A DNA stretch of 64,000 bases from Spirochaetia bacterium (GCA_965140585.1 OZ223272.1:480001-544000), one strand, 5' to 3'; shown: positions 1 through 16,361, counted from the stretch's first letter. Notes: generated from the sequence alone by a model not told the origin. A program made the numbers and translations.

Positions 1-271
1 TCAAAAGATATCTATACCCTTCTTCATAAGCACTTTTTATTATAAGAGATAACATTAAAACATGCTCTTCAATATAATGAGTTTCACCTATAAAGATGAT
101 TCGATTCTTTGAAAAAGCGGTTAATAAATTTTCTGGTAAATTCGATATTGATTTTGGCTTATCAAAATATGAGGCTTCACTAACATATTTTCGTTCTGGA
201 GATTGTTGCTTGGTTGTGCAACTAAAAAGTATTAATAAAATCAAAATAAGAGCTGTAAACTTTTTTAACAT
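1..271 (-). CDS. Cassette-borne lipoprotein, possibly EreA/ChaN/TraB-like; 3' end outside the window (absent from the ORF track)
   Basis: Manual translation: MLKKFTALILILLILFSCTTKQQ...NRIIFIGETHYIEEH...; lipobox LFSC, GExH motif, AAGGA RBS upstream, frame open to base 1. Confidence 0.75.
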   Translation of the reverse strand, partial: MLKKFTALILILLILFSCTTKQQSPERKYVSEASYFDKPKSISNLPENLLTAFSKNRIIFIGETHYIEEHVLMLSLIIKSAYEEGYRYLL

Positions 272-351
272 TTTATATATCCTTCATTCTTAAATGTTTG
301 AGCCATGGACGGCTCAAACTCTTATTCTTAATTACTCTTGGCGCTTATTGA

Positions 352-443
352 CTATAACGTTCCAGGGTTATACGACGTTCGGCAAAGCCGAATGTGGCGC
401 AGCCCGGAGGCCGTATGGCCGGAGCGAATAACCCTTGTTATAG
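352..443 (-). repeat. attC-like site (kinase type, 92 bp)
   Basis: CTATAAC...GTTATAG outer pair, AGGGTTAT/ATAACCCT inner pair, internal hairpin ACGTTCGGC-AAA-GCCGAATGT. Confidence 0.85.
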
Positions 444-494
444 GCAGTAAGCGCCTCTTTGATTACATGTAGTGAGGCACGGATGCCGAACGGA

Positions 495-702
495 AATCTT
501 TCTTCTTAATCTTTCTTCTTAATCTTTCTTCTTAATCTTTCTTCTTAATCTTTCTTCTTAATCTTTCTTCTTAATCTTTCTTCTTAATCTTTCTTCTTAA
601 TCTTTCTTCTTAATCTTTCTTCTTAATCTTTCTTCTTAATCTTTCTTCTTAATCTTTCTTCTTAATCTTTCTTCTTAATCTTTCTTCTTAATCTTTCTTC
701 TT
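495..702. repeat. 13-bp tandem repeat (AATCTTTCTTCTT)x16
   Basis: 208 bp = 16 exact units counted by hand. Confidence 0.95.
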
Positions 703-1191
703 AACAACATCTTCATAAATCATTGAAACAGCATCTGGAATGGATAAGTTTGAATTAATTCTGCTCTCAGAAATAATTCCAATCAAATCTTCTTCTCTCC
801 ACCACTTCCTCATATCCTCTTCTCCAAAATCAGAACTATTTGATTTCGATTTATGTCGTCGTATTGTCTCTTCAAAAGATAAATCATAATAATAAGCAAA
901 TATTTCAGAGTCAAATTCTTCTATTGCTTTTTTAAATAATCTAAGATAATAATCTGAGTATAAAATACCTTCTAAAATTACAAATTCTGAATTTCTCTTT
1001 CCATATTTAATTAATTCCTCTAAAAGTGGGATTGCCTTATTTTCAATTCTATCATGAACCCATAACATCTCTCTTCTTATATAATCCTGAGAAATCATCA
1101 TAGTATTTCGACCCAATTTTCTTTGTAATGATTTTGCTAAGGAAGTTTTTCCACTTCCTGAATTACCTCTAATAATTATTAGCTTTGACAT
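688..1191 (-). CDS. P-loop kinase (AAA_33/nucleoside-kinase-like), cassette copy 1
   Basis: Walker A IIRGNSGSGKT, 167 aa; AGAGGG RBS. Confidence 0.85.
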   Translation of the reverse strand: MSKLIIIRGNSGSGKTSLAKSLQRKLGRNTMMISQDYIRREMLWVHDRIENKAIPLLEELIKYGKRNSEFVILEGILYSDYYLRLFKKAIEEFDSEIFAYYYDLSFEETIRRHKSKSNSSDFGEEDMRKWWREEDLIGIISESRINSNLSIPDAVSMIYEDVVKKKD

Positions 1192-1268
1192 CTACTTTTT
1201 ATTTCCCTCTTAGAATCCGCCACGGAAGGCGGATTTCTTTCTTCTCGAAAAATCTTGGCGCTTATTGC

Positions 1269-1360
1269 CTATAACGTTCCAGGGTTATACGACGTTCGGC
1301 AAAGCCGAATGTGGCGCAGCCCGGAGGTCGTATGGCCGGAGCGAATAACCCTTGTTATAG
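1269..1360 (-). repeat. attC-like site (kinase type)
   Basis: Copy of 352-443 with one internal SNP (ggaggtcg). Confidence 0.85.
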
Positions 1361-1379
1361 GCAGTAAGCGCCTCTTTGA

Positions 1380-1913
1380 TTACATGTAGTGAGGCACGGA
1401 TGCCGAACGGAAATCTTTCTTCTTAACAACGTCTTCATAAATCATTGAAACAGCATCTGGAATGGATAAGTCTGAATTAATTCTGCTCTCAGAAATAATT
1501 CCAATCAAATCTTCTTCTCTCCACCACTTCCTCATATCCTCTTCTCCAAAATCAGAACTATTTGATTTCGATTTATGTCGTCGTATTGTCTCTTCAAAAG
1601 ATAAATCATAATAATAAGCAAATATTTCAGAGTCAAATTCTTCTATTGCTTTTTTAAATAATCTAAGATAATAATCTGAGTATAAAATACCTTCTAAAAT
1701 TACAAATTCTGAATTTCTCTTTCCATATTTAATTAATTCCTCTAAAAGTGGGATTGCCTTATTTTCAATTCTATCATGAACCCATAACATCTCTCTTCTT
1801 ATATAATCCTGAGAAATCATCATAGTATTTCGACCCAATTTTCTTTGTAATGATTTTGCTAAGGAAGTTTTTCCACTTCCTGAATTACCTCTAATAATTA
1901 TTAGCTTTGACAT
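1380..1913 (-). CDS. P-loop kinase, cassette copy 2 (single repeat unit, 10-aa C-terminal extension)
   Basis: Same protein with an N->D change; reads through to FRSASVPHYM. Confidence 0.85.
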   Translation of the reverse strand: MSKLIIIRGNSGSGKTSLAKSLQRKLGRNTMMISQDYIRREMLWVHDRIENKAIPLLEELIKYGKRNSEFVILEGILYSDYYLRLFKKAIEEFDSEIFAYYYDLSFEETIRRHKSKSNSSDFGEEDMRKWWREEDLIGIISESRINSDLSIPDAVSMIYEDVVKKKDFRSASVPHYM

Positions 1914-1990
1914 CTACTTTTTATTTCCCTCTTAGAATCCGCCACGGAAGGCGGATTTCTTTCTTCTCGAAAAATCTTGGCGCTTATTGC

Positions 1991-2082
1991 CTATAACGTT
2001 CCAGGGTTATACGACGTTCGGCAAAGCCGAATGTGGCGCAGCCCGGAGGCCGTATGGCCGGAGCGAATAACCCTTGTTATAG
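1991..2082 (-). repeat. attC-like site (kinase type)
   Basis: Copy of 352-443. Confidence 0.85.
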
Positions 2083-2133
2083 GCAGTAAGCGCCTCTTTG
2101 ATTACATGTAGTGAGGCACGGATGCCGAACGGA

Positions 2134-2276
2134 AATCTTTCTTCTTAATCTTTCTTCTTAATCTTTCTTCTTAATCTTTCTTCTTAATCTTTCTTCTTAA
2201 TCTTTCTTCTTAATCTTTCTTCTTAATCTTTCTTCTTAATCTTTCTTCTTAATCTTTCTTCTTAATCTTTCTTCTT
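2134..2276. repeat. 13-bp tandem repeat (AATCTTTCTTCTT)x11
   Basis: 143 bp = 11 exact units. Confidence 0.95.
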
Positions 2277-2765
2277 AACAACATCTTCATAAATCATTGA
2301 AACAGCATCTGGAATGGATAAGTTTGAATTAATTCTGCTCTCAGAAATAATTCCAATCAAATCTTCTTCTCTCCACCACTTCCTCATATCCTCTTCTCCA
2401 AAATCAGAACTATTTGATTTCGATTTATGTCGTCGTATTGTCTCTTCAAAAGATAAATCATAATAATAAGCAAATATTTCAGAGTCAAATTCTTCTATTG
2501 CTTTTTTAAATAATCTAAGATAATAATCTGAGTATAAAATACCTTCTAAAATTACAAATTCTGAATTTCTCTTTCCATATTTAATTAATTCCTCTAAAAG
2601 TGGGATTGCCTTATTTTCAATTCTATCATGAACCCATAACATCTCTCTTCTTATATAATCCTGAGAAATCATCATAGTATTTCGACCCAATTTTCTTTGT
2701 AATGATTTTGCTAAGGAAGTTTTTCCACTTCCTGAATTACCTCTAATAATTATTAGCTTTGACAT
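2262..2765 (-). CDS. P-loop kinase, cassette copy 3
   Basis: Protein identical to 688-1191. Confidence 0.85.
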   Translation of the reverse strand: MSKLIIIRGNSGSGKTSLAKSLQRKLGRNTMMISQDYIRREMLWVHDRIENKAIPLLEELIKYGKRNSEFVILEGILYSDYYLRLFKKAIEEFDSEIFAYYYDLSFEETIRRHKSKSNSSDFGEEDMRKWWREEDLIGIISESRINSNLSIPDAVSMIYEDVVKKKD

Positions 2766-2842
2766 CTACTTTTTATTTCCCTCTTAGAATCCGCCACGGA
2801 AGGCGGATTTCTTTCTTCTCGAAAAATCTTGGCGCTTATTGC

Positions 2843-2934
2843 CTATAACGTCCCGGGGTTATACGACGTTCGGCAAAGCCGAATGTGGCGCAGCCCGAAG
2901 CCCGAATGGGCGGAGCGTATAGCCCCTGTTATGC
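2843..2934 (-). repeat. attC-like site (A type, 92 bp)
   Basis: ATAAC-GTCCCGGG-GTTATACG...CGTATAGC-CCCT-GTTATGC; left half shared with kinase-type sites. Confidence 0.85.
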
Positions 2935-3328
2935 GACGTCGCCTTTATTAGAGAAAGATTCCGACCAATCAAACGATCTAAATAATCTCCTCTTACCATT
3001 TCTACCCAATATTCTATTCGCCCTTTGCGACTTTCACAATCATTTTTATTTTACCTGCAAGTCAACGAGCAAAGCGAGTGTGGCAGACTTGCCAAACGGA
3101 AAAACCTGTCATGCCCACGAAGCAGATTTTGATAATTATAAGCCAATACTTTTTCTTTAACGTCAGAACAAACATCGTCCAGCGCAACGACCTTCTTTTA
3201 ACAACCAAATCAAAATCCAAAATCTTCCTCATTCCAGGGCGAATTGAATATTGTAAACTATTTGGTAATCACTTGTGGTTCGGAACTTTCTCCACCCCAA
3301 GATCATGCTCCTGCGATGTCCGCATAAC
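2850..3328. other. ORF-less cassette A1 (479 bp), candidate structured RNA/ssDNA
   Basis: No ORF conserved across copies; nested inverted repeats; near-identical to A2 and A3. Confidence 0.75.
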
Positions 3329-3413
3329 GTCCCGGGGTTATACGACGTTCGGCAAAGCCGAATGTGGCGCAGCCCGAAGCCCGAATGGGCGGAGCGTATA
3401 GCCCCTGTTATGC
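3322..3413 (-). repeat. attC-like site (A type)
   Basis: Copy of 2843-2934. Confidence 0.85.
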
Positions 3414-3809
3414 GACGTCGCCTTTATTAGAGAAAGATTCCGATCAATCAAACGATCTAAATAATCTCCTCTTACCATTTCTACCCAATATTCTATTCGC
3501 CCTTTGCGACTTTCACAATCATTTTTTTTCACCTGCAAGTTAACGAGCAAAGCGAGTGTGGCAGACTTGCCAAACGGAAAAACCTGTCATGCCCACGAAG
3601 CAGATTTTGATAATTATAAGCCAATACTTTTTCTTTAACGTCAGAACAAACATCGTCCAACGCAACAACCTTCTTCTAACAACAACCAAATCAAAATCCA
3701 AAATCTTCCTCATTCCAGGGCGAATTAAATATTGCAAACTATTTGGTAATCACTTATGGTTCGGAACTTTCTCCACCCCAAGATCATGCTCCGGCGATGT
3801 CCGCATAAC
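3329..3809. other. ORF-less cassette A2 (481 bp)
   Basis: Near-identical to A1, with SNPs and small indels. Confidence 0.75.
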
Positions 3810-3981
3810 GTCCGCGGTTATGTGATGTTTTGTGGTCGGGCCCTACAGGCCGATTGGCAACTCTTTTGCATTCAGCGCCTTTACCCTCTATCTTGCTACT
3901 ACTTCGCAAAAGTGGTGACAAAGCAAAATATGCCGCAGGCCAAGGAGCGTTTAGCGACGCCGCACATAGCCGCTGTTATAC
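3803..3981 (-). repeat. attC-like site (B type, ~179 bp)
   Basis: ATAAC-GTCCGCG-GTTATGTG...CACATAGC-CGCT-GTTATAC. Confidence 0.8.
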
Positions 3982-4372
3982 GCCGTCACAGAATAAAGAA
4001 AGTTGTACATCATCTTCATAATCTAAACATTTATTTCACATTTCAAACTTCTTTAATATTCTATTCGACCATACTGACTTTCACAATCTTTTTTATTTAC
4101 TCCGCAAAATAACGAGCTTTGCGAGTGGGCCAGTTTTGCATAAACGTTTCTGCATGCCCCAGCCCCGTACAGATTTTGATTATTCCAAAGCCAAAACTCT
4201 TTCATAGAACGTCAGAAAAAAGTCATTGTTTGAAATTTTTCTTCATCAAAATAGAAATCAAAATCTGAAATCATATCTTAGTCGAAGAGAATATTGCCAA
4301 CTTATTATTTCATTATTAAGCGCAGCAACTTTCTTCCACCCAATATCCTTGCCCAAAGTGATGGAGTATAAC
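3810..4372. other. ORF-less cassette B1 (563 bp), divergent homolog of the A cassettes
   Basis: Shares blocks AATATTCTATTCG, GACTTTCACAATC, AACGAGCnnnGCGAGTG, CAGATTTTGAT, AACGTCAGAA and AATCAAAATC with A. Confidence 0.75.
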
Positions 4373-4514
4373 GTCCGTGGTTAAGCGAAGCTGATGCGCA
4401 ACTAAAGGAGTGTTTTGCGAATGCGCAAAACCGACTGACCCTGCTCTACTTCTCCGTAAGCTTCAGTTTGGGTGAAAGCGCCATGGCGCTTTCACCGCTT
4501 AACCATTGTTATGT
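4366..4514 (-). repeat. attC-like site (C type, ~149 bp)
   Basis: ATAAC-GTCCGTG-GTTAAGCG...CGCTTAAC-CATT-GTTATGT; internal palindrome GGTGAAAGCGCCATGGCGCTTTCACC. Confidence 0.8.
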
Positions 4515-4622
4515 GCTTTGAGCCCGACATCCAGACCGTTCAACGGAGTTAGGTCTGGATTCTTCTTTTCTTTTCCCAGGATTCTGAAAATAATCAATAC
4601 TGCTGTAAACACGTATTATGTT

Positions 4623-5201
4623 TTATAATCCTATTACTCTATTCCAATCTGCAATATACATATAAATTCTTTGAAATTCTGATGGTAGTAGCATTCTATT
4701 ATGTGCTATAAAATTTCTTGTTTTTTCAAGTTCATCCATTCTTTGTTTTAACCAATGTTGCGATGGTATCAAGGTTTCAAAAAAATGCCAAAACTCAATC
4801 ATAATTTGAGACAGCATTCCAAAATCTATAAAACCAAGAAGATCAGATTTTTCACCTTCTAACCAACTATCTTTTAAAGCGGATTCCTGACGTCTTTGAG
4901 CATGATCTTTTATTCTATTTGGAATCGAATCCCACCAATTTACCCCGATATTTTCCTGTAATGTTTCTCGAATTAGATCTCTTATTTCATTTTCAAAACA
5001 AAATATTAAACTATATAAACGAGACATTTCTAGTGCTTTATTTCTCCTATTAATCGAGAAAGGAGAGATAACCTCATTTGTTAAATCTATCTCAGTTCTC
5101 GAATCAGAAGCCCCTATTTGTATTCCTGCTTTTTGAAATTTATTTGCTTCAGATTCAAACATTAACCCTCGAAAAAGATAATCTCTTAAATCTTTAGTCA
5201 A
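4623..5201 (-). CDS. Swt1-like HEPN domain protein (putative RNase effector)
   Basis: FENEIRDLI...WW helix, IDFGML motif, HEPN Rx4H motif RNFIAH; TTG start with AAGGAG RBS overlapping the upstream stop. Confidence 0.75.
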   Translation of the reverse strand: MTKDLRDYLFRGLMFESEANKFQKAGIQIGASDSRTEIDLTNEVISPFSINRRNKALEMSRLYSLIFCFENEIRDLIRETLQENIGVNWWDSIPNRIKDHAQRRQESALKDSWLEGEKSDLLGFIDFGMLSQIMIEFWHFFETLIPSQHWLKQRMDELEKTRNFIAHNRMLLPSEFQRIYMYIADWNRVIGL

Positions 5202-5814
5202 TTAAATGCTCCTTAACACTTTTAAATATTGCGTTATAAACTTCTATATCTTTTGTTGCTGGTAAATGTATCTGAATATTATAATGTAATGAAGTTTGAC
5301 TGATCTTCCTTTCAATTGACTCAATTTTTTCTGGCTCGATTTCTTCTTTCTCATTATCATTATCTTCTACTATTTTTGTCTCTTCAACTACATCAGAATT
5401 TATATCTGCAAATTCTAATAGTGAATAAAATGTTTTCATCATCAATTCTGCATTGCGTTCTGAAGTATTATGAGTACTTTTAAACTTACCTTTTATTAAT
5501 TCTTTATCTTTATCTTCAGGATATCTGCTAATAGTAAAAATATCCGAATATGCCTCTTTAATTGCTTTGCCCAAGATTTTTCGTGATAAAGCTTCATTTC
5601 TAAATTCTTTATATTCATCAGTTGGTGATCCATCCTCTGTTAAAAACCCTAAAGCTTTTAATAATGGAATAAATGCTCTATGATTAGTCGAAGTAAATCC
5701 TATATCTTTCAAATGCTGATTAGTAAATTTCCCAGGAGCTTGTCCTTGTTTTATTTTATTAAAAAAATCTCCTAATTGACCATAAACTTGCAGCGGAATA
5801 TTTGCCAAACTCAT
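5194..5814 (-). CDS. DUF5343-like protein
   Basis: QAPGKFT..HLKDIGF.S.N.R...LLKALGFL..DG.PT..Y pattern and C-terminal LHYNIQIHLP, recognised from memory. Confidence 0.7.
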   Translation of the reverse strand: MSLANIPLQVYGQLGDFFNKIKQGQAPGKFTNQHLKDIGFTSTNHRAFIPLLKALGFLTEDGSPTDEYKEFRNEALSRKILGKAIKEAYSDIFTISRYPEDKDKELIKGKFKSTHNTSERNAELMMKTFYSLLEFADINSDVVEETKIVEDNDNEKEEIEPEKIESIERKISQTSLHYNIQIHLPATKDIEVYNAIFKSVKEHLID

Positions 5815-5961
5815 ATTCTCTCCCTTTATTTAAATTATTTCATATATATAACATTATAACGCTAAAATAATAATTTGGATCCTTAAAAATCACAACTTAA
5901 ACATTCTCTCTTCGCCCGTCGGCCGGAGGTCCGGGCGTCTTCCTCTTGTCGGGCTCATTGC

Positions 5962-6139
5962 ACATAACGTCCCGCGGTTATGTGATGTTTTGTGCTCGGC
6001 CCTACAGGCCGATTGGCAACTCTTTTGCATTCAGCGCCTTTACCCTCTATCTTTCTCCATTTCGCAAAAGTGGTGACAAAACAAAATATGCCGCAGGCCA
6101 AGGAGCGTCTAGCGACGCCGCACATAGCCGCTGTTATAC
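5962..6139 (-). repeat. attC-like site (B type, ~178 bp)
   Basis: Near-copy of 3803-3981. Confidence 0.8.
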
Positions 6140-6531
6140 GCCGTCACAAAATAAAGAAAGTTGTACATCATCTTCACAATCTAAACATTTCTTTCACATT
6201 TCAAACTTCTTTAATATTCTATTCGACCATACTGACTTTCACAATCTTTTTTATTTACTTCGCAAAATAACGAGCTTTGCGAGTGGGCCAGTTTTGCATA
6301 AACGTTTCTGCATGCCCCAGCCCCGTACAGATTTTGATTATTCCAAAGCCAAAACTCTTTCATAGAACGTCAGAAAAAAGTCGTTGTTTGAAATTTTTCT
6401 TCATCAAAACAAAAATCAAAATCTGAAATCAGATCTTAGTCGAACAGAATATTGCAAACTTATTATTTCATTATTTAAGCGCAGCAACTTTCTTCCACCC
6501 CATATCCTTGCCAAAAGTGATGGAGTATAAC
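5969..6531. other. ORF-less cassette B2 (563 bp)
   Basis: Near-identical to B1. Confidence 0.75.
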
Positions 6532-6616
6532 GTCCCGGGGTTATACGACGTTCGGCAAAGCCGAATGTGGCGCAGCCCGAAGCCCGAATGGGCGGAGCGT
6601 ATAGCCCCTGTTATGC
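6525..6616 (-). repeat. attC-like site (A type)
   Basis: Copy of 2843-2934. Confidence 0.85.
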
Positions 6617-7014
6617 GACGTCGCCTTTATTAGAGAAAGATTCCGATCAATCAAACGATCTAAATAATCTCCTCTTACCATTTCTACCCAATATTCTATT
6701 CGCCCTTTGCGACTTTCACAATCATTTTTATTTCACCTGCAAGTCAACGAGCAAAGTGAGTGTGGCAGACTTGCCAAACTGAAAAAACCTGTCATGCCCA
6801 CGAAGCAGATTTTGATAATTATAAGCCAATACTTTTTCTTTAACGTCAGAACAAACATCGTCCAACGCAACGACCTTCTTATAACAACAACCAAATCAAA
6901 ATCCAAAATCTTCCTCATTCCAGGGCGAATTGAATATTGCAAACTATTTGGTAATCACTTATGGTTCGGAACTTTCTCCACCCCAAGATCATGCTCCGGC
7001 GATGTCCGCATAAC
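6532..7014. other. ORF-less cassette A3 (483 bp), first cassette next to the attI-like site
   Basis: Near-identical to A1 and A2. Confidence 0.75.
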
Positions 7015-7079
7015 TCAGAATTATAAACTGGAATATCGTGCATATAACCCTCTAGATCCAGTACTTATAAACCTGTTAT
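7008..7079 (-). other. Putative attI-like insertion site
   Basis: Cassette sequence ends at GCATAAC (7014) and is followed by non-attC sequence with further ATAAC/ATAAAC motifs, directly downstream of the recombinase stop. Confidence 0.65.
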
Positions 7080-8153
7080 TCATAATAACCCGTCCAGTGG
7101 ACTATTTATATTTTTTAGGTCTTTAGTACTTACATGTGTATAAATCTGTGTTGTTTTTGGATCACGATGGCCTAAGAGCTCCTGAATATATCTGAGGTCT
7201 GTACCGTTTTCCAACAGGTGAGTGGCAAAGGCATGTCTTAAAGAATGTATACTTACATTTTTTTCAATACCTGTTGCTTCGATAGCTTTATAAAAGGCGT
7301 TCTGTGCAGATCTTGTAGCAAGATGGGTATCCGCACCTGCACTGCCAGGAAAAAGCCATGTATGTACCATCACTTTGGATCTGTATTCATTAATCATATG
7401 AATAATCTCAGTTGAAAGCATTACATATCTATCTTTTCGTCCTTTTGCCTGCCTGATATGAATTACTTTCCTATCGGTGTCAATATCCTGCAACTGTATT
7501 ATAACTGCTTCGCTTACTCGGAGACCTGCAGAGTATATTAATGATAATAGCAATCGGTGCTTAATATTCGGCGGAGATGTTATAATCTTCTTTACTTCTT
7601 CCCTGGATAGAATATCCGGATACTTCTTTTCTTTTTTCGGCATGGGAATCGATGCTGCAGGATTAAACAGACCGCCTAGATATCCGTATTTATAATAGCA
7701 TTTCAGGGCGCTCACACATTGTACAAAGTATGTTCTTGAGCATCCTGCAAGTGTCCGCATTTTCTCAAGATATATTTTAATATCCTCTGTCGTAACCTCT
7801 GAAGGATAAAGTTCTGTTCTTTCAAAGAACCACTTCAGCTGCATCTTATATGTTTCGATAGTATGAGGACTATAGTCTCTAAGCTTTAGATACTGCAGCA
7901 TCTTTTCCAGATAGCGGTTATGAGACGGTTCCTGATTTTCGAGAGACTTCTCATCCACATTAAACCTGCCGGTTTTATACAATGACAAAAGAAAGTGCTG
8001 CATATTTGCATCTGTATCCGGAAATGTCCATTTTTTATTTGCCGGCTGCCATTGTCTTCCCGGTATTGTACGTACAATATCAAGAACCTGAGCATCGAAA
8101 GGGAAAAATATACCTATTTTATTATTTTCTTCATAAACGATTTCAACTGCCAA
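7080..8153 (-). CDS. Tyrosine recombinase with N-terminal extension and SAM-like domain; lacks the IntI-specific insertion
   Basis: Catalytic set: AGLRVSE (R), AKGRKDR (K), HSLRH, LLGH, TQIYTH (Y). N-terminus FPFD..V...VRTIPGRQW....KKWTFP. Confidence 0.92.
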   Translation of the reverse strand: MAVEIVYEENNKIGIFFPFDAQVLDIVRTIPGRQWQPANKKWTFPDTDANMQHFLLSLYKTGRFNVDEKSLENQEPSHNRYLEKMLQYLKLRDYSPHTIETYKMQLKWFFERTELYPSEVTTEDIKIYLEKMRTLAGCSRTYFVQCVSALKCYYKYGYLGGLFNPAASIPMPKKEKKYPDILSREEVKKIITSPPNIKHRLLLSLIYSAGLRVSEAVIIQLQDIDTDRKVIHIRQAKGRKDRYVMLSTEIIHMINEYRSKVMVHTWLFPGSAGADTHLATRSAQNAFYKAIEATGIEKNVSIHSLRHAFATHLLENGTDLRYIQELLGHRDPKTTQIYTHVSTKDLKNINSPLDGLL

Positions 8154-8174
8154 TACTTTATCCGTTTTTATTTT

Positions 8175-8203
8175 ATATTAGCAGACCTATGCCGAATCAG
8201 CAA
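8175..8203 (-). promoter_or_regulatory. Possible sigma70 promoter for the recombinase
   Basis: Minus strand TTGCTG-17 bp-TAATAT with a TGn extension. Confidence 0.35.
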
Positions 8204-9129
8204 TAAAATTTAAGTACACGAAGAGCCCTCAGAGTATTCCATCGGCCTGGTTTACCTGCCTGCTCAAAATTTGTGTGGACCTGCCCCGGCAGGGAGGCCT
8301 GGGCGTTCCAGTGACCGGGAGGTTTTTGCTTGCTTTTGATTATAGCTATAGCTTCATCCATAGCCGGGGCGTAAAGCGTTTCCGAATACCTGAAATAATC
8401 CATTGCCCGCAGAATGTCATAACGCCATCTCGGCGGATACGGAAAACGGAGGAAATCTTTCTTAATTATTTCACCTGTTCGATCTGAACGGAACAGTCTG
8501 TGCCGAAAGATAAAATCACGAATCCCGCCGAGAGAGCTTTTGATTTCATCGGCTCGGTAGGAGTAACCGTTTTTCAGGTATTCGGTGAAACCTTCGGCTA
8601 CGGAAAGACTGGAATGCAGTGAGCTGTGAACAGCACCTTTGCGGTTAAACTGACAGTTATATCCGCCGTCTGGAAGTCTCTGATCAAGCATATAATCAAT
8701 TACTGATACAAGCTTTTCAGGATCAGCATTAAAATAGCAGGCATAATTCAGAAACATCCCGTTTAAACAGACGTCACTCTGTTTTACAGATCCGGGCGGA
8801 TTTATTCCGCCATCTCCGCCTTTTTCTTCCTTAAGAAGCATTTCAACAGTTTCCTGCACTGCAGGAGTTTCAGTAGGAATGCACAGGTTGCGTAAATCCA
8901 GCAGCGTATAGTGGGTAGATGTCCATTTGGGCTGATAGAACTTCAGGCCCCAGTGACCGTCAGGACGCTGTGCATCAAGAAGAATTTTACCCCACCCCCC
9001 GGCAGCGGCTTTTATCTGAAGTTCAGGTCTGTCTGTATCAAGAAGGTCACGGTAGGTCTGATATGCGATCGAGGCATCGCCTTCAAGAAGCCATCTGATT
9101 ATCTCATCCACTTCATATCCTCCCGTCAC
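8197..9129 (-). CDS. Prenyltransferase/squalene-cyclase-repeat-like hypothetical protein
   Basis: QRPDGHWG and RLPDGGYNC QW-like repeats; C-terminal GRWNTLRALRVL. Confidence 0.65.
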   Translation of the reverse strand: MTGGYEVDEIIRWLLEGDASIAYQTYRDLLDTDRPELQIKAAAGGWGKILLDAQRPDGHWGLKFYQPKWTSTHYTLLDLRNLCIPTETPAVQETVEMLLKEEKGGDGGINPPGSVKQSDVCLNGMFLNYACYFNADPEKLVSVIDYMLDQRLPDGGYNCQFNRKGAVHSSLHSSLSVAEGFTEYLKNGYSYRADEIKSSLGGIRDFIFRHRLFRSDRTGEIIKKDFLRFPYPPRWRYDILRAMDYFRYSETLYAPAMDEAIAIIKSKQKPPGHWNAQASLPGQVHTNFEQAGKPGRWNTLRALRVLKFYC

Positions 9130-9131
9130 AG

Positions 9132-9920
9132 TCAGCTGATGCTTTTTATAAGCACATCAGCAATTTCTACAAAGCCGCTTCCTCCTCTTGAGTCTGCGAT
9201 GTAGGCAGGACGGTGGACGAGCATATCATCAAAGTCGCGGATATTTGCTACGGCGAAGGAGTAAGGCAGGAAGTTAAACATAGGCTCATCGTTGGGAGAG
9301 TCTCCGCAGAAGACGGAGGATTTTTTAAAAGCTTCTGAATCAAGGCCGTAGCGGTATTTCATAAATAGCCCCGCCATTCCTATCTTTGAATAATCACCGA
9401 ACCAGGTGTTTACGTGTATTGAGCTGACCTTGGCTATCGCGCCCTGGGCCTCACATATATCCTTAATCCGGCCGGCCGCTTCATAGCCGAGCCTCGGAGG
9501 ATCCTCGTTGAAATCAATTGCAAGATCATAGATTCTTGCAAACTGATCTTTTGCTTTTCGGACCAGGGGAATTTCAGTCTTTACCGCATCGTATACATCA
9601 TCAAGCTTCTTTCTCACATCGGTATCAGCAACTGACGGGTGTGTGTAGGTCTTAAGCTGATGGTCTTCAAAATAGTAGACAAAGGCACCGTTCTCACCTA
9701 TTACTGCATCAACAGGCCACTGGCGGATTATCATATCGCACCAGCCTGCCGGACGTCCGGTTACAGGGATCACTGTAAAGCCCGTATCATGCAGCTTCCA
9801 CAGGGCTGAATATGCATCTGCGCCCAGTTTCCCTTCCTCTGTCAGGGTATCATCGATATCAGTAAGTACATACTTTATCTTTTGAGGGCAGTCTGAAAGA
9901 AAATCTTTTACATTTTTCAC
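9132..9920 (-). CDS. HAD-IIB family hydrolase
   Basis: TDIDDTLT, VTGRPAGW, GDSPNDEP motifs; GTG start at 9920 chosen over the longer ORF. Confidence 0.85.
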   Translation of the reverse strand: MKNVKDFLSDCPQKIKYVLTDIDDTLTEEGKLGADAYSALWKLHDTGFTVIPVTGRPAGWCDMIIRQWPVDAVIGENGAFVYYFEDHQLKTYTHPSVADTDVRKKLDDVYDAVKTEIPLVRKAKDQFARIYDLAIDFNEDPPRLGYEAAGRIKDICEAQGAIAKVSSIHVNTWFGDYSKIGMAGLFMKYRYGLDSEAFKKSSVFCGDSPNDEPMFNFLPYSFAVANIRDFDDMLVHRPAYIADSRGGSGFVEIADVLIKSIS

Positions 9921-9950
9921 TTTGATGCATTTCCTTGTGCAGGGATTTGT

Positions 9951-9992
9951 ACACAGCTCCCCGCAGCAATACAGGGCTGCGGGGAGCTGTGT
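9951..9992. repeat. Perfect 17-bp-stem inverted repeat
   Basis: ACACAGCTCCCCGCAGC-8 nt-GCTGCGGGGAGCTGTGT. Confidence 0.85.
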
Positions 9993-10038
9993 TCCGGACT
10001 GGACGGCTGCTGCTCTGCAGCTGTTCAGCACTTGTGCT

Positions 10039-10620
10039 TCAGCTGCCCTTCAGGACTTTCCGGGCACTTGCAAAATAGGTGAGAAAGGAAAGAGCTGAGG
10101 AGATAGCTGCCAGCGCAAAAAGTATATAGGTTACAGTTCCGAACAGAGGCATCCAGTCGGGATAGTATTCAAGCCTGTTGAACGATGTAACAAGAAGTCC
10201 TGCTATACCGGCTATTGTATAGGTGATTGCCTTGGCCTTGCCCCAGATGCTTGCCGCCATTGCGGTGCCCTTACCCATCATCATCATACGAAGAAAGGTG
10301 ATTCCGAGCTCACGATAGATGATAATTACAAAGGCCCAGAGGGGCATGATTCCGGTAAAGGTAAAGCATATAAAGAAGGTTACCCGGCTTATTACGTCCG
10401 AAAACGGGTCGAGGATCTTGCCGAGATCAGTAACCATGTTGTATTTTCTGGCGATGTGTCCGTCCAGCGCATCGGATATTTCCATGAGCACGAAAAGCGG
10501 AAGCATTATCGCTACTGACAAACCCATGAAACTGCCGGTCTGCTCTGGAAGCATGTAGATAATGATAAATACCGGCGCTAAGATGATTCTGAAAACGGTT
10601 ATTTTAGTTGGAAGATTCAT
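10039..10620 (-). CDS. pgsA: CDP-diacylglycerol--glycerol-3-phosphate 3-phosphatidyltransferase
   Basis: MNLPTKITVFRI; SDALDGHIARKYNMVTDLGKILDPFSD CDP-alcohol phosphotransferase motif. Confidence 0.9.
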   Translation of the reverse strand: MNLPTKITVFRIILAPVFIIIYMLPEQTGSFMGLSVAIMLPLFVLMEISDALDGHIARKYNMVTDLGKILDPFSDVISRVTFFICFTFTGIMPLWAFVIIIYRELGITFLRMMMMGKGTAMAASIWGKAKAITYTIAGIAGLLVTSFNRLEYYPDWMPLFGTVTYILFALAAISSALSFLTYFASARKVLKGS

Positions 10621-10687
10621 GATATGAGGGTATTAGTATTTTCATATATTGTCAACGCAGAGGCCGGGCAGCTGTGTTACTTCTGCA

Positions 10688-11320
10688 CTAAAGAGTAACT
10701 CCGTACTTAAACAATGCTATTTCCCTGATTCCGTTTTGTTCGGCGGCTGTTTCTTCTTCGTTTACAACCGCGACCAGCCGGTCAAGCAGCAGTTCTGCTT
10801 GAAATCTTAAGGGTGGGAATAAACCCTCCAATCGGAGTTCCTCTTCCAGTTGAAAAAAGCACCAGCTGGCAGCCTGAGGTGCCTAGCAGGGAGGTTGCAA
10901 CAATATCGTTCCCCGGAGCATGCAGCAGATTAAGCCCCTGCCTCGAAATCCGTTCCTCCATCCCTACAATATCAGCTATTGCCGAACTTCCGGCTTTTCT
11001 GATGCATCCCAGCGACTTCTCTTCAAGTGTGGTAATGCCTCCGTCCTTGTTGCCCGGAGACGGATTTTCATAAACCGGCTGATTGTGAGCCGTATAGTGA
11101 GCCTTCCACTGATCTATCATTTCTGCAGTCCGGCTGAACATTTCGTCATCAGGACACAGTTTTAGCAGCACATTTTCGGCTCCGAACCTCCGCACAAGAA
11201 CTCCTCCCGCATTAGGGTGCAGAACAAGGTTTTGAAGCAGTGTTCTGGCACGGGCATGATCATCACCAAGCTGGGACCACCATAGGGATGGGGGAAGCTG
11301 AAAATCCCGTCGATTCCCGG
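10688..11320 (-). pseudogene. uxaA: Altronate dehydratase remnant
   Basis: Fragments in different frames: HPYG/SQLGDDH, ENPSPGNKDGGITTLEEKSLG, TGRGTP, and C-terminal EIALFKYGVTL; large deletions. Confidence 0.8.
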
Positions 11321-12006
11321 CTAGGTCCGCCCGTCAAGTTCAGCCCTGCAAAATATGGCAAGTGCGGCAAGAGACAGGGACCTAAGAGGCGGAAGCTTGC
11401 CGTCCTTACGGTTGTATTCAAGAAACTGCGGTAGAAGCCTCGTCTTGAACTTGGTCATTAAATTATGTGATATTGAAAGAAGCTGATGATGTATAAATGG
11501 ATTTTTGAACCTGGCAACCACACTATCCGCATATTGCTTCAGTTCAGCTTCAAGAAGACGCCTCAAAAACTCTGAAAGTTTGCTGTCTGGAACAGAAGCC
11601 CCTACCGTCTCAAAGCTGCAAAGCCAAGCAACCGGAACCAGTGCAGTATGACATCCATTTAAAATTCCAACCCTTCTCTGTTTATAGGGCTTTAAATCAT
11701 CCACAACCTTACATCAAGTCCGCTGCTGGCAAGTTTAAGTTCCTCCCCAACCTCGGCAGGAACCAGGATCACAAACAAATGAAAATATTCGCCGGCTGTT
11801 ATGAAATTATCTTTATAACCAAGCTCCTTCTCGAGTACCTGAGCCTGTTCATGTGGATAATCGGTAACAACACGGTCTACGAGGGTCGAACAGAAAGTAT
11901 TTGAGTTCAATAGCCATTTGGTGAATCCATTTTCAAGGGTTCCATATACCGGCATATTTAAGCACAATTTCCTTAAGGACTTCTCCGTTACAATCAATGA
12001 GCTCAC
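11321..12006 (-). pseudogene. uxaB: Tagaturonate/altronate oxidoreductase remnant
   Basis: FCSTLVDRVV, EYFHLFVI, LNGCHT, RFKNPFIHHQLLSI..N..TKFKTRLLP split over two frames. Confidence 0.8.
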
Positions 12007-15716: not shown

Positions 15717-16361
15717 TTAACGATTCCGCAGCTTTGCAAGAAGACCCTGCTTTGGAGCCTTTTCCGTTTTAGCTGAAGCACCCGCTGTCGGTGAACCGGA
15801 AAGCTGGGAATCATGCTCAATTGCGGTCTCCGCAGCACGGGCCTCACGGGTTTCCTGACTGCGGGCATCGGTTATCCAGCCGCTTCCGGCGGCCGGAGTA
15901 ATCCTTTTTGTAAAAACCTTTGAACCGTCAAGGCTTCGGCCGTTTTCCTCTTCACATTCCCGAAGGACTATCTGCCAGGCCGGAGCAAAGCCTGGAGCCT
16001 GAAGCGACATCTTCTCTACAGCATCCTGGTATATCCGAAGCTGAAGGTTTTCCTTCCTGCCGGCCTTCTGTGAAAGATTGGAAATGGATGACTGAAGGTT
16101 TGCATTCTTTATCCGCAGTGATTCAATTTCCTTCCGCATCCGGTCTATCGACTCGGAATCAAGGTCAATTCTGCTTGTTAGGGTATGTTTAAGCCCCCGA
16201 ATAACCTTTTTACTGCGGGATTTGAGCACCAGTATCCTGATTCCGAATATCAGCCAGGCAAGAATAAACCCGGCAGCAAAGGAATATACAATGGTATGAT
16301 CAATGGGGCCAACTTCAAAAACAGGTACTGACAATTTTATCTCCTTGGTAATATCCTTCAC
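15717..16361 (-). CDS. Hypothetical membrane-anchored coiled-coil protein
   Basis: One TM segment followed by a coiled coil; APGFAPAWQ motif. Start uncertain. Confidence 0.65.
   Translation of the reverse strand: MKDITKEIKLSVPVFEVGPIDHTIVYSFAAGFILAWLIFGIRILVLKSRSKKVIRGLKHTLTSRIDLDSESIDRMRKEIESLRIKNANLQSSISNLSQKAGRKENLQLRIYQDAVEKMSLQAPGFAPAWQIVLRECEEENGRSLDGSKVFTKRITPAAGSGWITDARSQETREARAAETAIEHDSQLSGSPTAGASAKTEKAPKQGLLAKLRNR

Follow-up and report, generated by a model that had tools for sequence, protein, structure and literature searches.

A probable variant chromosomal integron in a Spirochaetia bacterium, headed by an IntI-related recombinase with a HARP-like domain and no I2 insertion

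The locus described here raises the question of which enzyme moves the cassettes of a long array when the tyrosine recombinase beside it is not a recognizable IntI. It occupies one end of a 64 000 nt stretch of DNA from a Spirochaetia bacterium (GCA_965140585.1 OZ223272.1:480001-544000; contig C9 of genome G000), which we call the window. Its features are as follows.

7080..8153, minus strand: tyrosine recombinase gene, 357 aa (ORF; Pfam Phage_integrase E 1.6e-42, Phage_int_SAM_4)
7962..8153, minus strand: HARP-like N-terminal domain (Pfam HARP, AF2, Foldseek, VIA-align)
7010..7079, minus strand: attI-like region, from recombinase stop codon to first cassette; junction at 7014
6532..7014, minus strand: cassette c36, A-type, ~480 bp, no ORF >61 aa; attC-like site 6527-6614
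5969..6531, minus strand: cassette c35, B-type, ~563 bp; long attC-like site 5964-6137
4373..5968, minus strand: cassette c34, two genes; attC-like site 4368-4512
5194-5814, minus strand: c34 gene for a DUF5343 protein (Pfam DUF5343 E 5.8e-46)
4623-5201, minus strand: c34 gene for a Swt1-like HEPN protein (HEPN_Swt1 E 1.4e-12)
3810..4372, minus strand: cassette c33, B-type; attC-like site 3805-3979
3329..3809, minus strand: cassette c32, A-type; attC-like site 3324-3411
2850..3328, minus strand: cassette c31, A-type; attC-like site 2845-2932
1998..2849, minus strand: cassette c30, P-loop kinase-like gene (2262-2765) and 13-nt tandem repeat; attC-like site 1993-2080
1276..1997, minus strand: cassette c29, same kinase-like gene (1380-1913) without the tandem repeat; attC-like site 1271-1358
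359..1275, minus strand: cassette c28, same kinase-like gene (688-1191) with the tandem repeat; attC-like site 354-441
1..358, minus strand: cassette c27, proximal part (full: C9:478675-480358); array continues leftward

We consider it probable, on comparative evidence throughout, that the locus is a variant form of sedentary chromosomal integron, run by the recombinase encoded at 7080-8153. The original prediction had described a cassette system with ten ATAAC| junctions, and this system is real: all ten junctions are present, nine of them belonging to attC-like sites, each cassette ending in a palindrome of its own as had been claimed, and the tenth, at 7014, being an attI-like junction 66 nt past the recombinase stop codon. 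Positions 1-7014 are the proximal end of an array that extends a further 24 kb leftward beyond the window, and comprises 36 cassettes and 37 junctions in a single orientation over ~31 kb (C9:455973-487014). All 36 cassettes share their boundaries exactly at ATAAC|, carry their ORFs on the recombinase strand and terminate in an attC-like palindrome; strand exchange presumably takes place at ATAA|C. The ATAAC motif by itself shows only mild enrichment in the window (165 observed, 113 expected, a count reached in 0 of 100 shuffles). Far more telling is a structural scan for AACGYN together with R stem, 5' bulge and L stem (the last of 8 bp or more), which returned 32 sites on the plus strand of the 31-kb array and 60 on both strands of the remainder of the 4.85-Mb genome.

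The cassettes behave as units. A-type cassettes occur nine times and B-type cassettes five times in the array, with different neighbours, and A-type copies are up to 100% identical. Cassette c2 aligns over 844/844 nt, at 97% identity, with a cassette of the congener G002 that has other neighbours; nearly all other cassettes differ between the two arrays, yet the flanks are 90-95% identical, showing that array content has turned over between congeners. R''/R' complementarity continues ~15 nt beyond the core, and the ends that it pairs belong to one and the same cassette, as expected for a circular intermediate. Leftward of 7014 the sequence belongs to an A-type cassette and rightward it is unique, and the motif RGA-GTTAT is found 40-150 nt past the stop codon in most orthologues of the recombinase; the attI-like crossover would lie at minus-strand G|TTAT, which on the plus strand is ATAA|C (7010-7014).

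The recombinase that adjoins the array is complete, as had been described. It consists of a HARP-like domain (aa 1-62), a linker, a SAM-like core-binding domain (aa 82-156) and a catalytic domain (aa 182-343), and its AF2 model has a mean pLDDT of 85.8. Residues R212, K237, H303, R306, H329 and Y338 are invariant in 28 homologues and, with roles assigned by homology, would make up the complete tyrosine-recombinase catalytic set. The claim that the enzyme is not an IntI is borne out by its score on TIGR02249 (192.8 bits, split over two stretches, where the cut-off is 265) and by the short stretch from KGRKDR to HSLRH, which is 60 aa, as compared with 100 aa in 13 of 14 I2-type IntIs, 79 aa in the other and 64-67 aa in XerC/XerD. 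In the alignment to VchIntIA (PDB 2a3v), its best structural match, correspondence breaks at query residues 255-277 while the VchIntIA chain runs from 178 to 241. By this alignment and the motif spacing, the IntI-specific additional domain (I2, or patch III insertion) is absent. On the XerC and XerD models TIGR02224 and TIGR02225 the enzyme scores 199.4 and 197.4 bits, below their cut-offs of 335.15 and 329.6, as compared with 331.7 and 329.2 for the genome's own pair; it exceeds the cut-off of the XerA-type model NF040815 (229.4 against 220 bits), but this model does not discriminate, as the genome's XerC-like protein also scores 235.2 on it.

The original prediction went further and proposed a parallel, possibly independently evolved, system. 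This part is not supported. The C-terminal tail, ending NSPLDGLL, has the SPLD of IntI in place of the HPR of XerC/XerD, and in a quick-search tree, whose sample is biased by the search patterns, the recombinase falls outside the IntI clade (SH-aLRT 100) and inside a larger clade with IntI that stands apart from XerC/D at SH-aLRT 100. The enzyme is thus related to IntI and is no independent invention.

The N-terminal extension noted earlier is present as described. It is a domain of 64 aa with a predicted beta-beta-alpha-beta-beta-alpha order (AF2 pLDDT 94.3). Pfam HARP (PF07443, gathering cut-off 25) gives 22.5 bits on the whole protein and 26.5 bits on the isolated domain, and matches 24 of 32 members of the recombinase family at E ≤ 0.1. 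The top Foldseek match is the HARP domain of SMARCAL1 (4o66, probability 0.98, E 0.038), and VIA-align pairs the domain with the T4 UvsW N-domain (Z 6.1), the XPB DRD (Z 5.6) and 4o66 (Z 4.8). HARP and the substrate-recognition domains of SMARCAL1, T4 UvsW and XPB bind forked or damaged DNA. The recombinase N-terminus, which as an isolated domain matches Pfam HARP, is predicted to have the same small alpha/beta fold, but theirs are carried on a helicase, whereas the domain here is a single copy on a recombinase. We propose, from these models, that it may be a structure-specific DNA-binding module; that the assignment depends on a sequence score barely above the cut-off, and on structural scores that are middling, counts against our reading of the locus.

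The most serious competitor to that reading, which we nevertheless think unlikely, is that the array is a CALIN-like cassette store served in trans by a canonical IntI, the adjacent recombinase being a bystander or otherwise employed. Such an IntI exists, though the original prediction had missed it: contig C6 of the same genome encodes one (377.9 bits on TIGR02249 for the ORF, with an I2-type insertion), so that action in trans on the C9 array is possible in this genome, and the same model detects IntI in 8 of 11 genomes from the window's own order. Passages in PMC4889954 describe IntIs as accepting diverse attC sites, and canonical-type attC sites are nested within the loops of some sites of the C9 array, so the two systems are not fully insulated. 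The C6 IntI, its counterparts in the order and the nested sites count against the variant-integron reading. The C6 IntI, however, has an array of its own, with at least 23 sites of a distinct type that has two single-base bulges, and covariance models R1 and R2 have zero matches in that array or at other I2-type IntI loci; by these comparisons the two site types are separate. The original prediction had allowed that a canonical intI at the array's other end might be its true integrase. We found no IntI-like or Xer-like gene at the far end.

A survey of homologues for downstream arrays, which the original prediction had called for, found the association, also in genomes that gave no canonical IntI. 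Orthologues in other Spirochaetota (37-57% identity) likewise stand 5' of similar arrays, and all 112 of 112 model matches have the same layout of gene, attI and array, lying downstream on the strand opposite the recombinase gene, which counts against service in trans. For R1 these were 38/38 matches in G002, G003, G005, G008, G010 and L008, and 28/28 in other Spirochaetota families, at 10 of the 20 loci. For R2 they were 40/40 over ~56 kb in G320, with none within 10 kb upstream, and 6/6 in a wider locus set that includes Bacteroidota L017 (E 8e-5), L022 and L028. No R1 match at E ≤ 1 was present in the ~18 kb of downstream DNA of each of G380, G047, G340 and G081 (R2 gave a marginal match in G047, E 0.72), and of 8 Bacteroidota loci with 3.7 kb or more downstream, only 3 yielded an R2 match. 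Because the genomes are kin, the repeated linkage is partly inherited synteny.

Outside the order, the TIGR02249 cut-off was exceeded in none of nine array-bearing genomes (G320, G357, G226, G073, G181, G076, G273, G129 and G326), which are 93-100% complete; the same search found IntI in G116. Among the nine, a long array is documented only in G320, a complete single contig with 40 sites; each of the remaining eight has one to three model matches in the DNA fetched. In G005, where the other, non-canonical array is present, the canonical intI is broken into two frames. Contigs of relatives also often break just 3' of the recombinase gene, which we count in favour of the variant-integron reading: among 45 minus-strand matches, 18 begin no more than 2.2 kb from the first base of their contig, as compared with only 6 of 44 plus-strand matches so close on the 5' side, and 8 of the 15 plus-strand loci fetched end within 2.4 kb past the gene.

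The attC-like sites themselves bear on how the recombinase might act. The R stem pairs xxATAACG with TGTTATxx and includes a conserved G.T. It is followed, just 3' of the crossover and on the crossover-bearing arm, by a 5' bulge of 3-5 nt (GTYC), and then by an L stem of at least 11 bp that covaries, is continuous in the consensus and has no extrahelical bases in the consensus L box. Among 53 sites drawn from 16 loci, both partners vary in 10 of 11 L-stem pairs, and 96.4% of cells are paired; the overall figure is 90.4%, as compared with 30-50% when the partners are slid, in an alignment (A3) that was fitted to the model and so favours pairing. A G.U stands beside the crossover in 50 of the 53. 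The c31 site, folded as DNA, reaches -21.6 kcal/mol (z -3.4) on the plus strand and -17.3 (z -1.5) on the minus strand. The bottom strand (plus strand of the window) is thus the better folding one, and only one strand folds well because of the conserved G.T wobbles. The covariation and this fold describe a hairpin with an R box and an L box, as in an integron attC.

An alternative, which we regard as improbable, is that the same enzyme carries out classical double-stranded recombination at ATAAC-N7/8-GTTAT, in the manner of Xer at dif, with no folded single strand. The R' and L' boxes do form an inverted repeat with a spacer of 7-8 nt, the usual size for core sites, and this spacer starts with the conserved GTYC. 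The enzyme also lacks I2, which is tied to single-strand attC recognition in passages of PMC4792948. The L''-R'' boxes (spacer 4 nt), however, covary with the first pair, a pattern that a protein-binding consensus would not produce; the spacer is variable in both length and sequence among sites whose neighbours have plainly been exchanged, and the wobbles favour folding of one strand. That the array is a fossil, its palindromes now only terminators or REP-like elements and its recombinase otherwise employed, for example in chromosome dimer resolution, would accord with the lack of any direct sign of activity (rare circles cannot show in Logan contigs), but is very improbable given the A-type copies of up to 100% identity in different contexts, the turnover between congeners, and a XerC-like and XerD-like pair of the genome's own (331.7 and 329.2 bits, both over the PRK00283 cut-off).

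Returning to the variant-integron reading, we suppose that recombination is carried out by the adjacent recombinase and that its substrate is presumably single-stranded. The enzyme would act on the attI-like site past its own stop codon and on the attC-like site ending each cassette, the latter folding on the bottom strand into R stem, GTYC bulge and L stem. It would insert cassettes at attI and excise them between attC sites, with exchange at ATAA|C as in integrons. The HARP-like domain, if it takes part in recombination, may read the bulge or the single-strand/duplex junction, and so take over the job of I2, which in IntI works through extrahelical bases. Passages in PMC9668308 and PMC4889954 hold the I2 domain necessary for attC recombination, which counts against this reading.

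The architecture, with no hallmark insertion and a putative DNA-structure-binding domain, suggests a second, overlooked kind of integron. A more far-reaching idea, which we offer tentatively and hold somewhat less likely to be right than wrong, is that these elements form a second widespread class, in which integrases that never had I2 or have lost it use a fused HARP-like domain to read attC without extrahelical bases, that canonical IntI arose within the group by gaining I2, and that every survey filtering on the additional domain has missed them. If true, such elements would be living examples of the pre-I2 state, which is called a chicken-and-egg paradox in a passage of Escudero et al. 2016 (PMC4792948).

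Compared with known systems, the locus resembles sedentary chromosomal integrons most closely in layout. It has a tyrosine recombinase beside an attI-like site, and its long one-way array is made up of promoterless-looking cassettes, which end in imperfect palindromes with R''-L''...L'-R' boxes and have junctions at G|TT; the bottom strand folds better, and cassette content turns over between related genomes. It differs in an enzyme that lacks the I2/patch III insertion, falls below the TIGR02249 cut-off and has an added HARP-like N-terminal domain, in sites with a conserved 3-5 nt bulge on the crossover arm in place of L-stem extrahelical bases, and in a recombinase gene co-oriented with its cassettes. 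The reverse-orientation integrons of Spirochaetota (Treponema type) share the phylum, the co-oriented integrase and an attI at the 3' end of the gene, but their IntIs are described as having the additional domain; unlike them, the C6 IntI gene of this genome is divergent from its cassettes. In a passage of PMC9668308, reverse orientation is given as typical of Spirochaetota IntIs.

With XerC/XerD the enzyme shares a simple tyrosine-recombinase plan and a catalytic region of similar length (60 aa against 64-67 aa between motifs), but it differs in its SPLD tail, its scores below the XerC/XerD cut-offs, its separate clade and its coexistence with the genome's own Xer pair. Sites of the dif type are ~28 bp long, whereas those here are structured palindromes of 73-180 nt. 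Tools based on IntI would probably file the C9 array as a CALIN, because no protein matching the IntI-specific region lies nearby; unlike a CALIN, it is headed by a conserved IntI-related recombinase and an attI-like site. Passages of Cury et al. 2016 (PMC4889954) report only 50 recombinases without intI_Cterm near attC, judged not to be IntI, the four intermediate ones having fewer than three attC sites, as compared with the 36 cassettes found here.

The cassette array with ATAAC junctions described in the original prediction was borne out, and was found to run beyond the window: 37 junctions (...ATAAC/GTYC..., the slash marking the junction) delimit 36 cassettes of 191–2087 bp in a single orientation, which span C9:455973–487014 of the Spirochaetia genome (G000), window positions 1–7014 (the window being C9:480001–544000) forming the proximal quarter. 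We number the cassettes c1–c36, c36 lying nearest the recombinase. Judged from the sequence, array and adjoining gene probably constitute an integron variant, in which an IntI relative that lacks I2 (the additional domain specific to IntI) and is fused to a HARP-like domain would serve as integrase and recombine attC-like sites.

Features of the array, the adjoining recombinase and the canonical integron of the same genome
Window 7080–8153, minus strand: 357-aa recombinase ORF with Phage_integrase and SAM-like domains
Window, three cassette copies: P-loop kinase-like gene (PRK06762 group)
Window, three cassettes: A-type, ~480 bp, without a long ORF
Window, two cassettes: B-type, ~563 bp, without a long ORF
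Window, one cassette: two genes, for DUF5343 and a Swt1-like HEPN protein
Further left in the array: cassettes for a PF00144 serine hydrolase, an MBL-fold protein, an ankyrin/SH3 protein, an HNH endonuclease and unknowns
G000:C6:916649–966500 (L003:10643–20000 and beyond; L003 is the fetched C6 region): canonical integron, intI with an N-terminal extension of ~100 aa

A palindrome of 73–175 nt forms the end of each cassette as read on the coding strand. Read along the plus strand of the window, the site consists of xxATAAC, GTYC, a stem arm (e.g. CGGGGTTATAC), a variable region, the second stem arm and TGTTATxx. In the consensus fold, 6–8 pairs that include a G.U make up the R stem and 11 pairs the L stem, and the 5′ arm carries a bulge of 4 nt. 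In an alignment of 53 sites from 16 loci, which was fitted to the model and so leans towards pairing, two-sided changes occurred in 10 of the 11 L-stem pairs, where 96.4% of cells were paired; pairing over the whole structure was 90.4% of cells, compared with 30–50% when the partners were slid, the observed values were reached by none of 500 shuffles, and a G.U pair lay next to the crossover in 50 of the 53 sites. When one site was folded as DNA, the plus strand gave −21.6 kcal/mol (z −3.4) and the minus strand −17.3 kcal/mol (z −1.5), the latter without the R stem. Because the plus strand folds better, it is, as in integrons, the bottom strand with respect to the cassette genes that folds; the longer cassette ORFs are carried by the minus strand. 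Complementarity between R′′ and R′ reaches ~15 nt beyond the core and links both ends of the same cassette, as would fit a circular free cassette form. In a structural scan, 32 sites were detected within the array (plus strand) and 60 in the other 4.85 Mb with both strands counted. No Rfam match (by E-value) was obtained in window 1–12000, and a first generic attC scanner (AAC...GTT plus stems) was dropped because it gave ~0.9 matches per kb in control DNA.

The multi-copy cassettes comprise nine A-type copies (pairwise identity 89–100%) and five B-type copies (94–99%), and in both families the neighbours vary from copy to copy. They are located at window 2850–4372 and 5969–7014, with nine more in C9:465868–478674. 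Their coding strand has no ORF longer than 61 aa; small genes, RNAs or promoters could be their cargo. A promoter and terminator scan of window 6400–8400 returned counts not above those of shuffles, and we claim no cassette promoter. G002, a congener, has a recombinase 96% identical to that of G000, and the flanks on both sides of the array are 90–95% identical; of the 36 cassettes, only c2 and the A-type copies align there across 80% or more of their length, with partial alignments for c10 and c22. The match of c2 to a G002 cassette covers the full 844 nt at 97% identity and ends exactly at the junction, with other neighbours beyond. No RNA data set was listed among the sequencing runs with this sequence. 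At cassette boundaries, Logan contigs of sequencing runs X1–X3 are broken or have loose ends, and an X3 contig joins 5966 to 7012; we did not count such breaks as evidence of activity, because repeated cassettes break assemblies anyway.

Two of the leftward cassette proteins, the PF00144 (beta-lactamase family) serine hydrolase (495 aa; L002:4377–5864, in the fetched C9 region) and the MBL-fold protein (291 aa; L002:13215–14090), bear generic family names that do not imply resistance. Tandem repeats of a 13-nt unit, TCTTAATCTTTCT on the plus strand, separate the kinase-like gene from its attC site (window 484–700 and 2122–2280), with ~16 copies in c28 and ~11 in c30; c29, which lies between them, has the unit once and a kinase-like ORF that is 10 aa longer.

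We considered how far the gene and such arrays occur together in other genomes. A homologue is present in 10 of 11 genomes of the order, and the loci of G002, G005, G008 and G010 (orthologues 52–57% or 96% identical) have arrays of the same type directly downstream. In the phylum sample, 84 of 401 genomes match the recombinase at E ≤ 1e-55. R1, which like R2 is a covariance model of the C9-type sites, had matches in 10 of the 20 loci fetched from this sample, all 28 on the expected strand; six of the 10 R1-negative loci have less than 2.4 kb of downstream DNA, and R1 matches were absent from ~18 kb of downstream DNA in each of G380, G047, G340 and G081. In G320, on a single contig, 40 R2 matches extend across ~56 kb downstream, the opposite strand and the 10 kb upstream being free of matches. 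The Bacteroidota loci L017 (E 8e-5), L022 and L028 each have one R2 match downstream of the gene, and the L017 site shares the AAC-GTTCC bulge and likewise has a long L stem. Self-BLAST of distant loci did not find downstream repeats, which says little, since attC sites have little common sequence. An attI-like ...RGA-GTTAT... motif lies 40–150 nt past the stop codon in most orthologues, including one from a Bacillota genome. In relatives, contig breaks just 3′ of the gene far outnumber those 5′ of it, exactly the pattern that downstream repeats would leave. Four copies of the I2-less recombinase were seen in G226 (C1, C2, C6 and C7), one with a stop codon, and two in tandem in G082:C127, one with two stop codons.

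The array could instead be worked in trans by the canonical IntI of contig C6, the adjoining recombinase being a bystander. This IntI (419 aa, 377.9 bits) has an LP..L..KY...W.WFW-type insertion and is oriented divergently to its own array (at least 23 sites in 46 kb), and canonical-type IntIs occur in 8 of the 11 genomes of the order. The chief reason to doubt service in trans is that an IntI over the TIGR02249 cut-off was found in none of the nine array-bearing genomes outside the order, a count in which drafts can miss genes and a long array is documented for G320 alone. The C6 sites, of ~135 nt with two single-base bulges on one L-stem arm, are unlike those of C9, and were matched by neither R1 nor R2. 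We favour the adjoining recombinase as the integrase of the C9 array.

The two systems do meet. A complete canonical-type site with two single-base bulges lies inside the variable loop of a C9-type site at C9:478670–478990 (L002:18670–18990), and nested composite sites occur twice in G010 (L098:12020–12345 and 15719–16040). In B-type cassettes (window 4191 and 6349), a vestige of the canonical L′′ motif is left as well. These arrangements hint at traffic between the systems. In G005, canonical intI matches as two overlapping pieces in different frames (G005:C45:6889–7828; L110, L113) and is probably broken; this genome retains the I2-less recombinase and its array. A cassette pair in the C6 array (L003:14221–14772) resembles an antitoxin/toxin pair.

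That the enzyme is not an IntI, as first proposed, agrees with its TIGR02249 score (192.8 bits in two stretches; cut-off 265), with the absence of the I2 insertion and with a KGxKxR–HxLRH spacing of 60 aa, as against 100 aa in 13 of 14 I2-type IntIs and 64–67 aa in XerC/D-type proteins. Some 60 chain residues of VchIntIA (2a3v) have no counterpart in it. Residues R212, K237, H303, R306, H329 and Y338 are invariant across 28 homologues. Assignment as XerC or XerD was rejected (199.4 and 197.4 bits, far under the cut-offs), and the genome's own XerC/D pair sits on contig C4; membership of NF040815 was also rejected, the match being uninformative. The suggestion of independent evolution had to be abandoned, because the recombinase and IntI have the ...SPLD tail in common, its best structural match is 2a3v, and the tree places it with IntI apart from XerC/D. 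In that tree (108 recombinases, quick search, root not inferred, sample biased by two peptide patterns), the XerC/D-type proteins group together (SH-aLRT 100), and all SPLD-tailed proteins with IntI make up the other clade, the IntI clade (100) lying within an unresolved fork among I2-less lineages. The recombinase is thus no independent invention, yet it is outside IntI as now defined. We propose that it would act on attC-like sites with a 5′ bulge instead of extrahelical bases.

The N-terminal domain (residues 1–62), modelled alone, has a predicted fold with pLDDT 94.3. As the whole-protein match to Pfam HARP (22.5 bits) was insufficient alone, the isolated domain was re-tested and scored 26.5 bits (cut-off 25); 24 of 32 family members match HARP at E ≤ 0.1. 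Foldseek ranked the SMARCAL1 HARP domain (4o66) first (prob 0.98, E 0.038), and VIA-align gave Z 6.1 for the T4 UvsW N-domain, 5.6 for XPB and 4.8 for 4o66. With Z values that are middling, a HARP-type fold is likely but not certain. HARP-type domains bind forked or damaged DNA. The N-terminal profile matched 6072 representatives in a protein library at E ≤ 0.001, and by these matches the domain is a widespread module; we rejected this figure as the size of the recombinase family, because the best matches are proteins of many lengths (160–1150 aa) with 2–4 tandem copies of the domain.

If an I2-less family does head long arrays, the definition of the integron would widen, some arrays now called CALINs would be reclassified, and hidden cassette reservoirs would exist in Spirochaetota and perhaps Bacteroidota; a new structure-specific recombinase could also result as a tool. 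A search of the open-access literature, main texts only, yielded no description of a cassette array led by a recombinase that lacks I2 or is fused to a HARP domain. Cury et al. (2016; PMC4889954) searched complete genomes for just such cases and found, close to attC sites, 50 recombinases without intI_Cterm, of which 29 were in replicons with IntI elsewhere; four IntI/Xer intermediates each had fewer than three attC sites, and the intI_Cterm-less recombinases near attC were judged not to be IntI. In the literature, I2 is regarded as the defining and indispensable feature of an integron integrase and serves as a survey filter (PMC9668308, PMC8352920, PMC2426708, PMC4889954), IntI being chosen by the additional domain in Ghaly 2022 (PMC9668308), Ghaly 2021 (PMC8352920) and Nemergut 2008 (PMC2426708). 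Smyshlyaev 2021 (PMC8138268) calls the insertion 'not fully conserved' in an integron-like subgroup. Escudero 2016 (PMC4792948) asks how either of I2 and attC could have evolved in the absence of the other; if the family is as we propose, the origin of single-strand attC recombination would become testable, by setting I2 and extrahelical bases against a HARP-like domain and a bulge.
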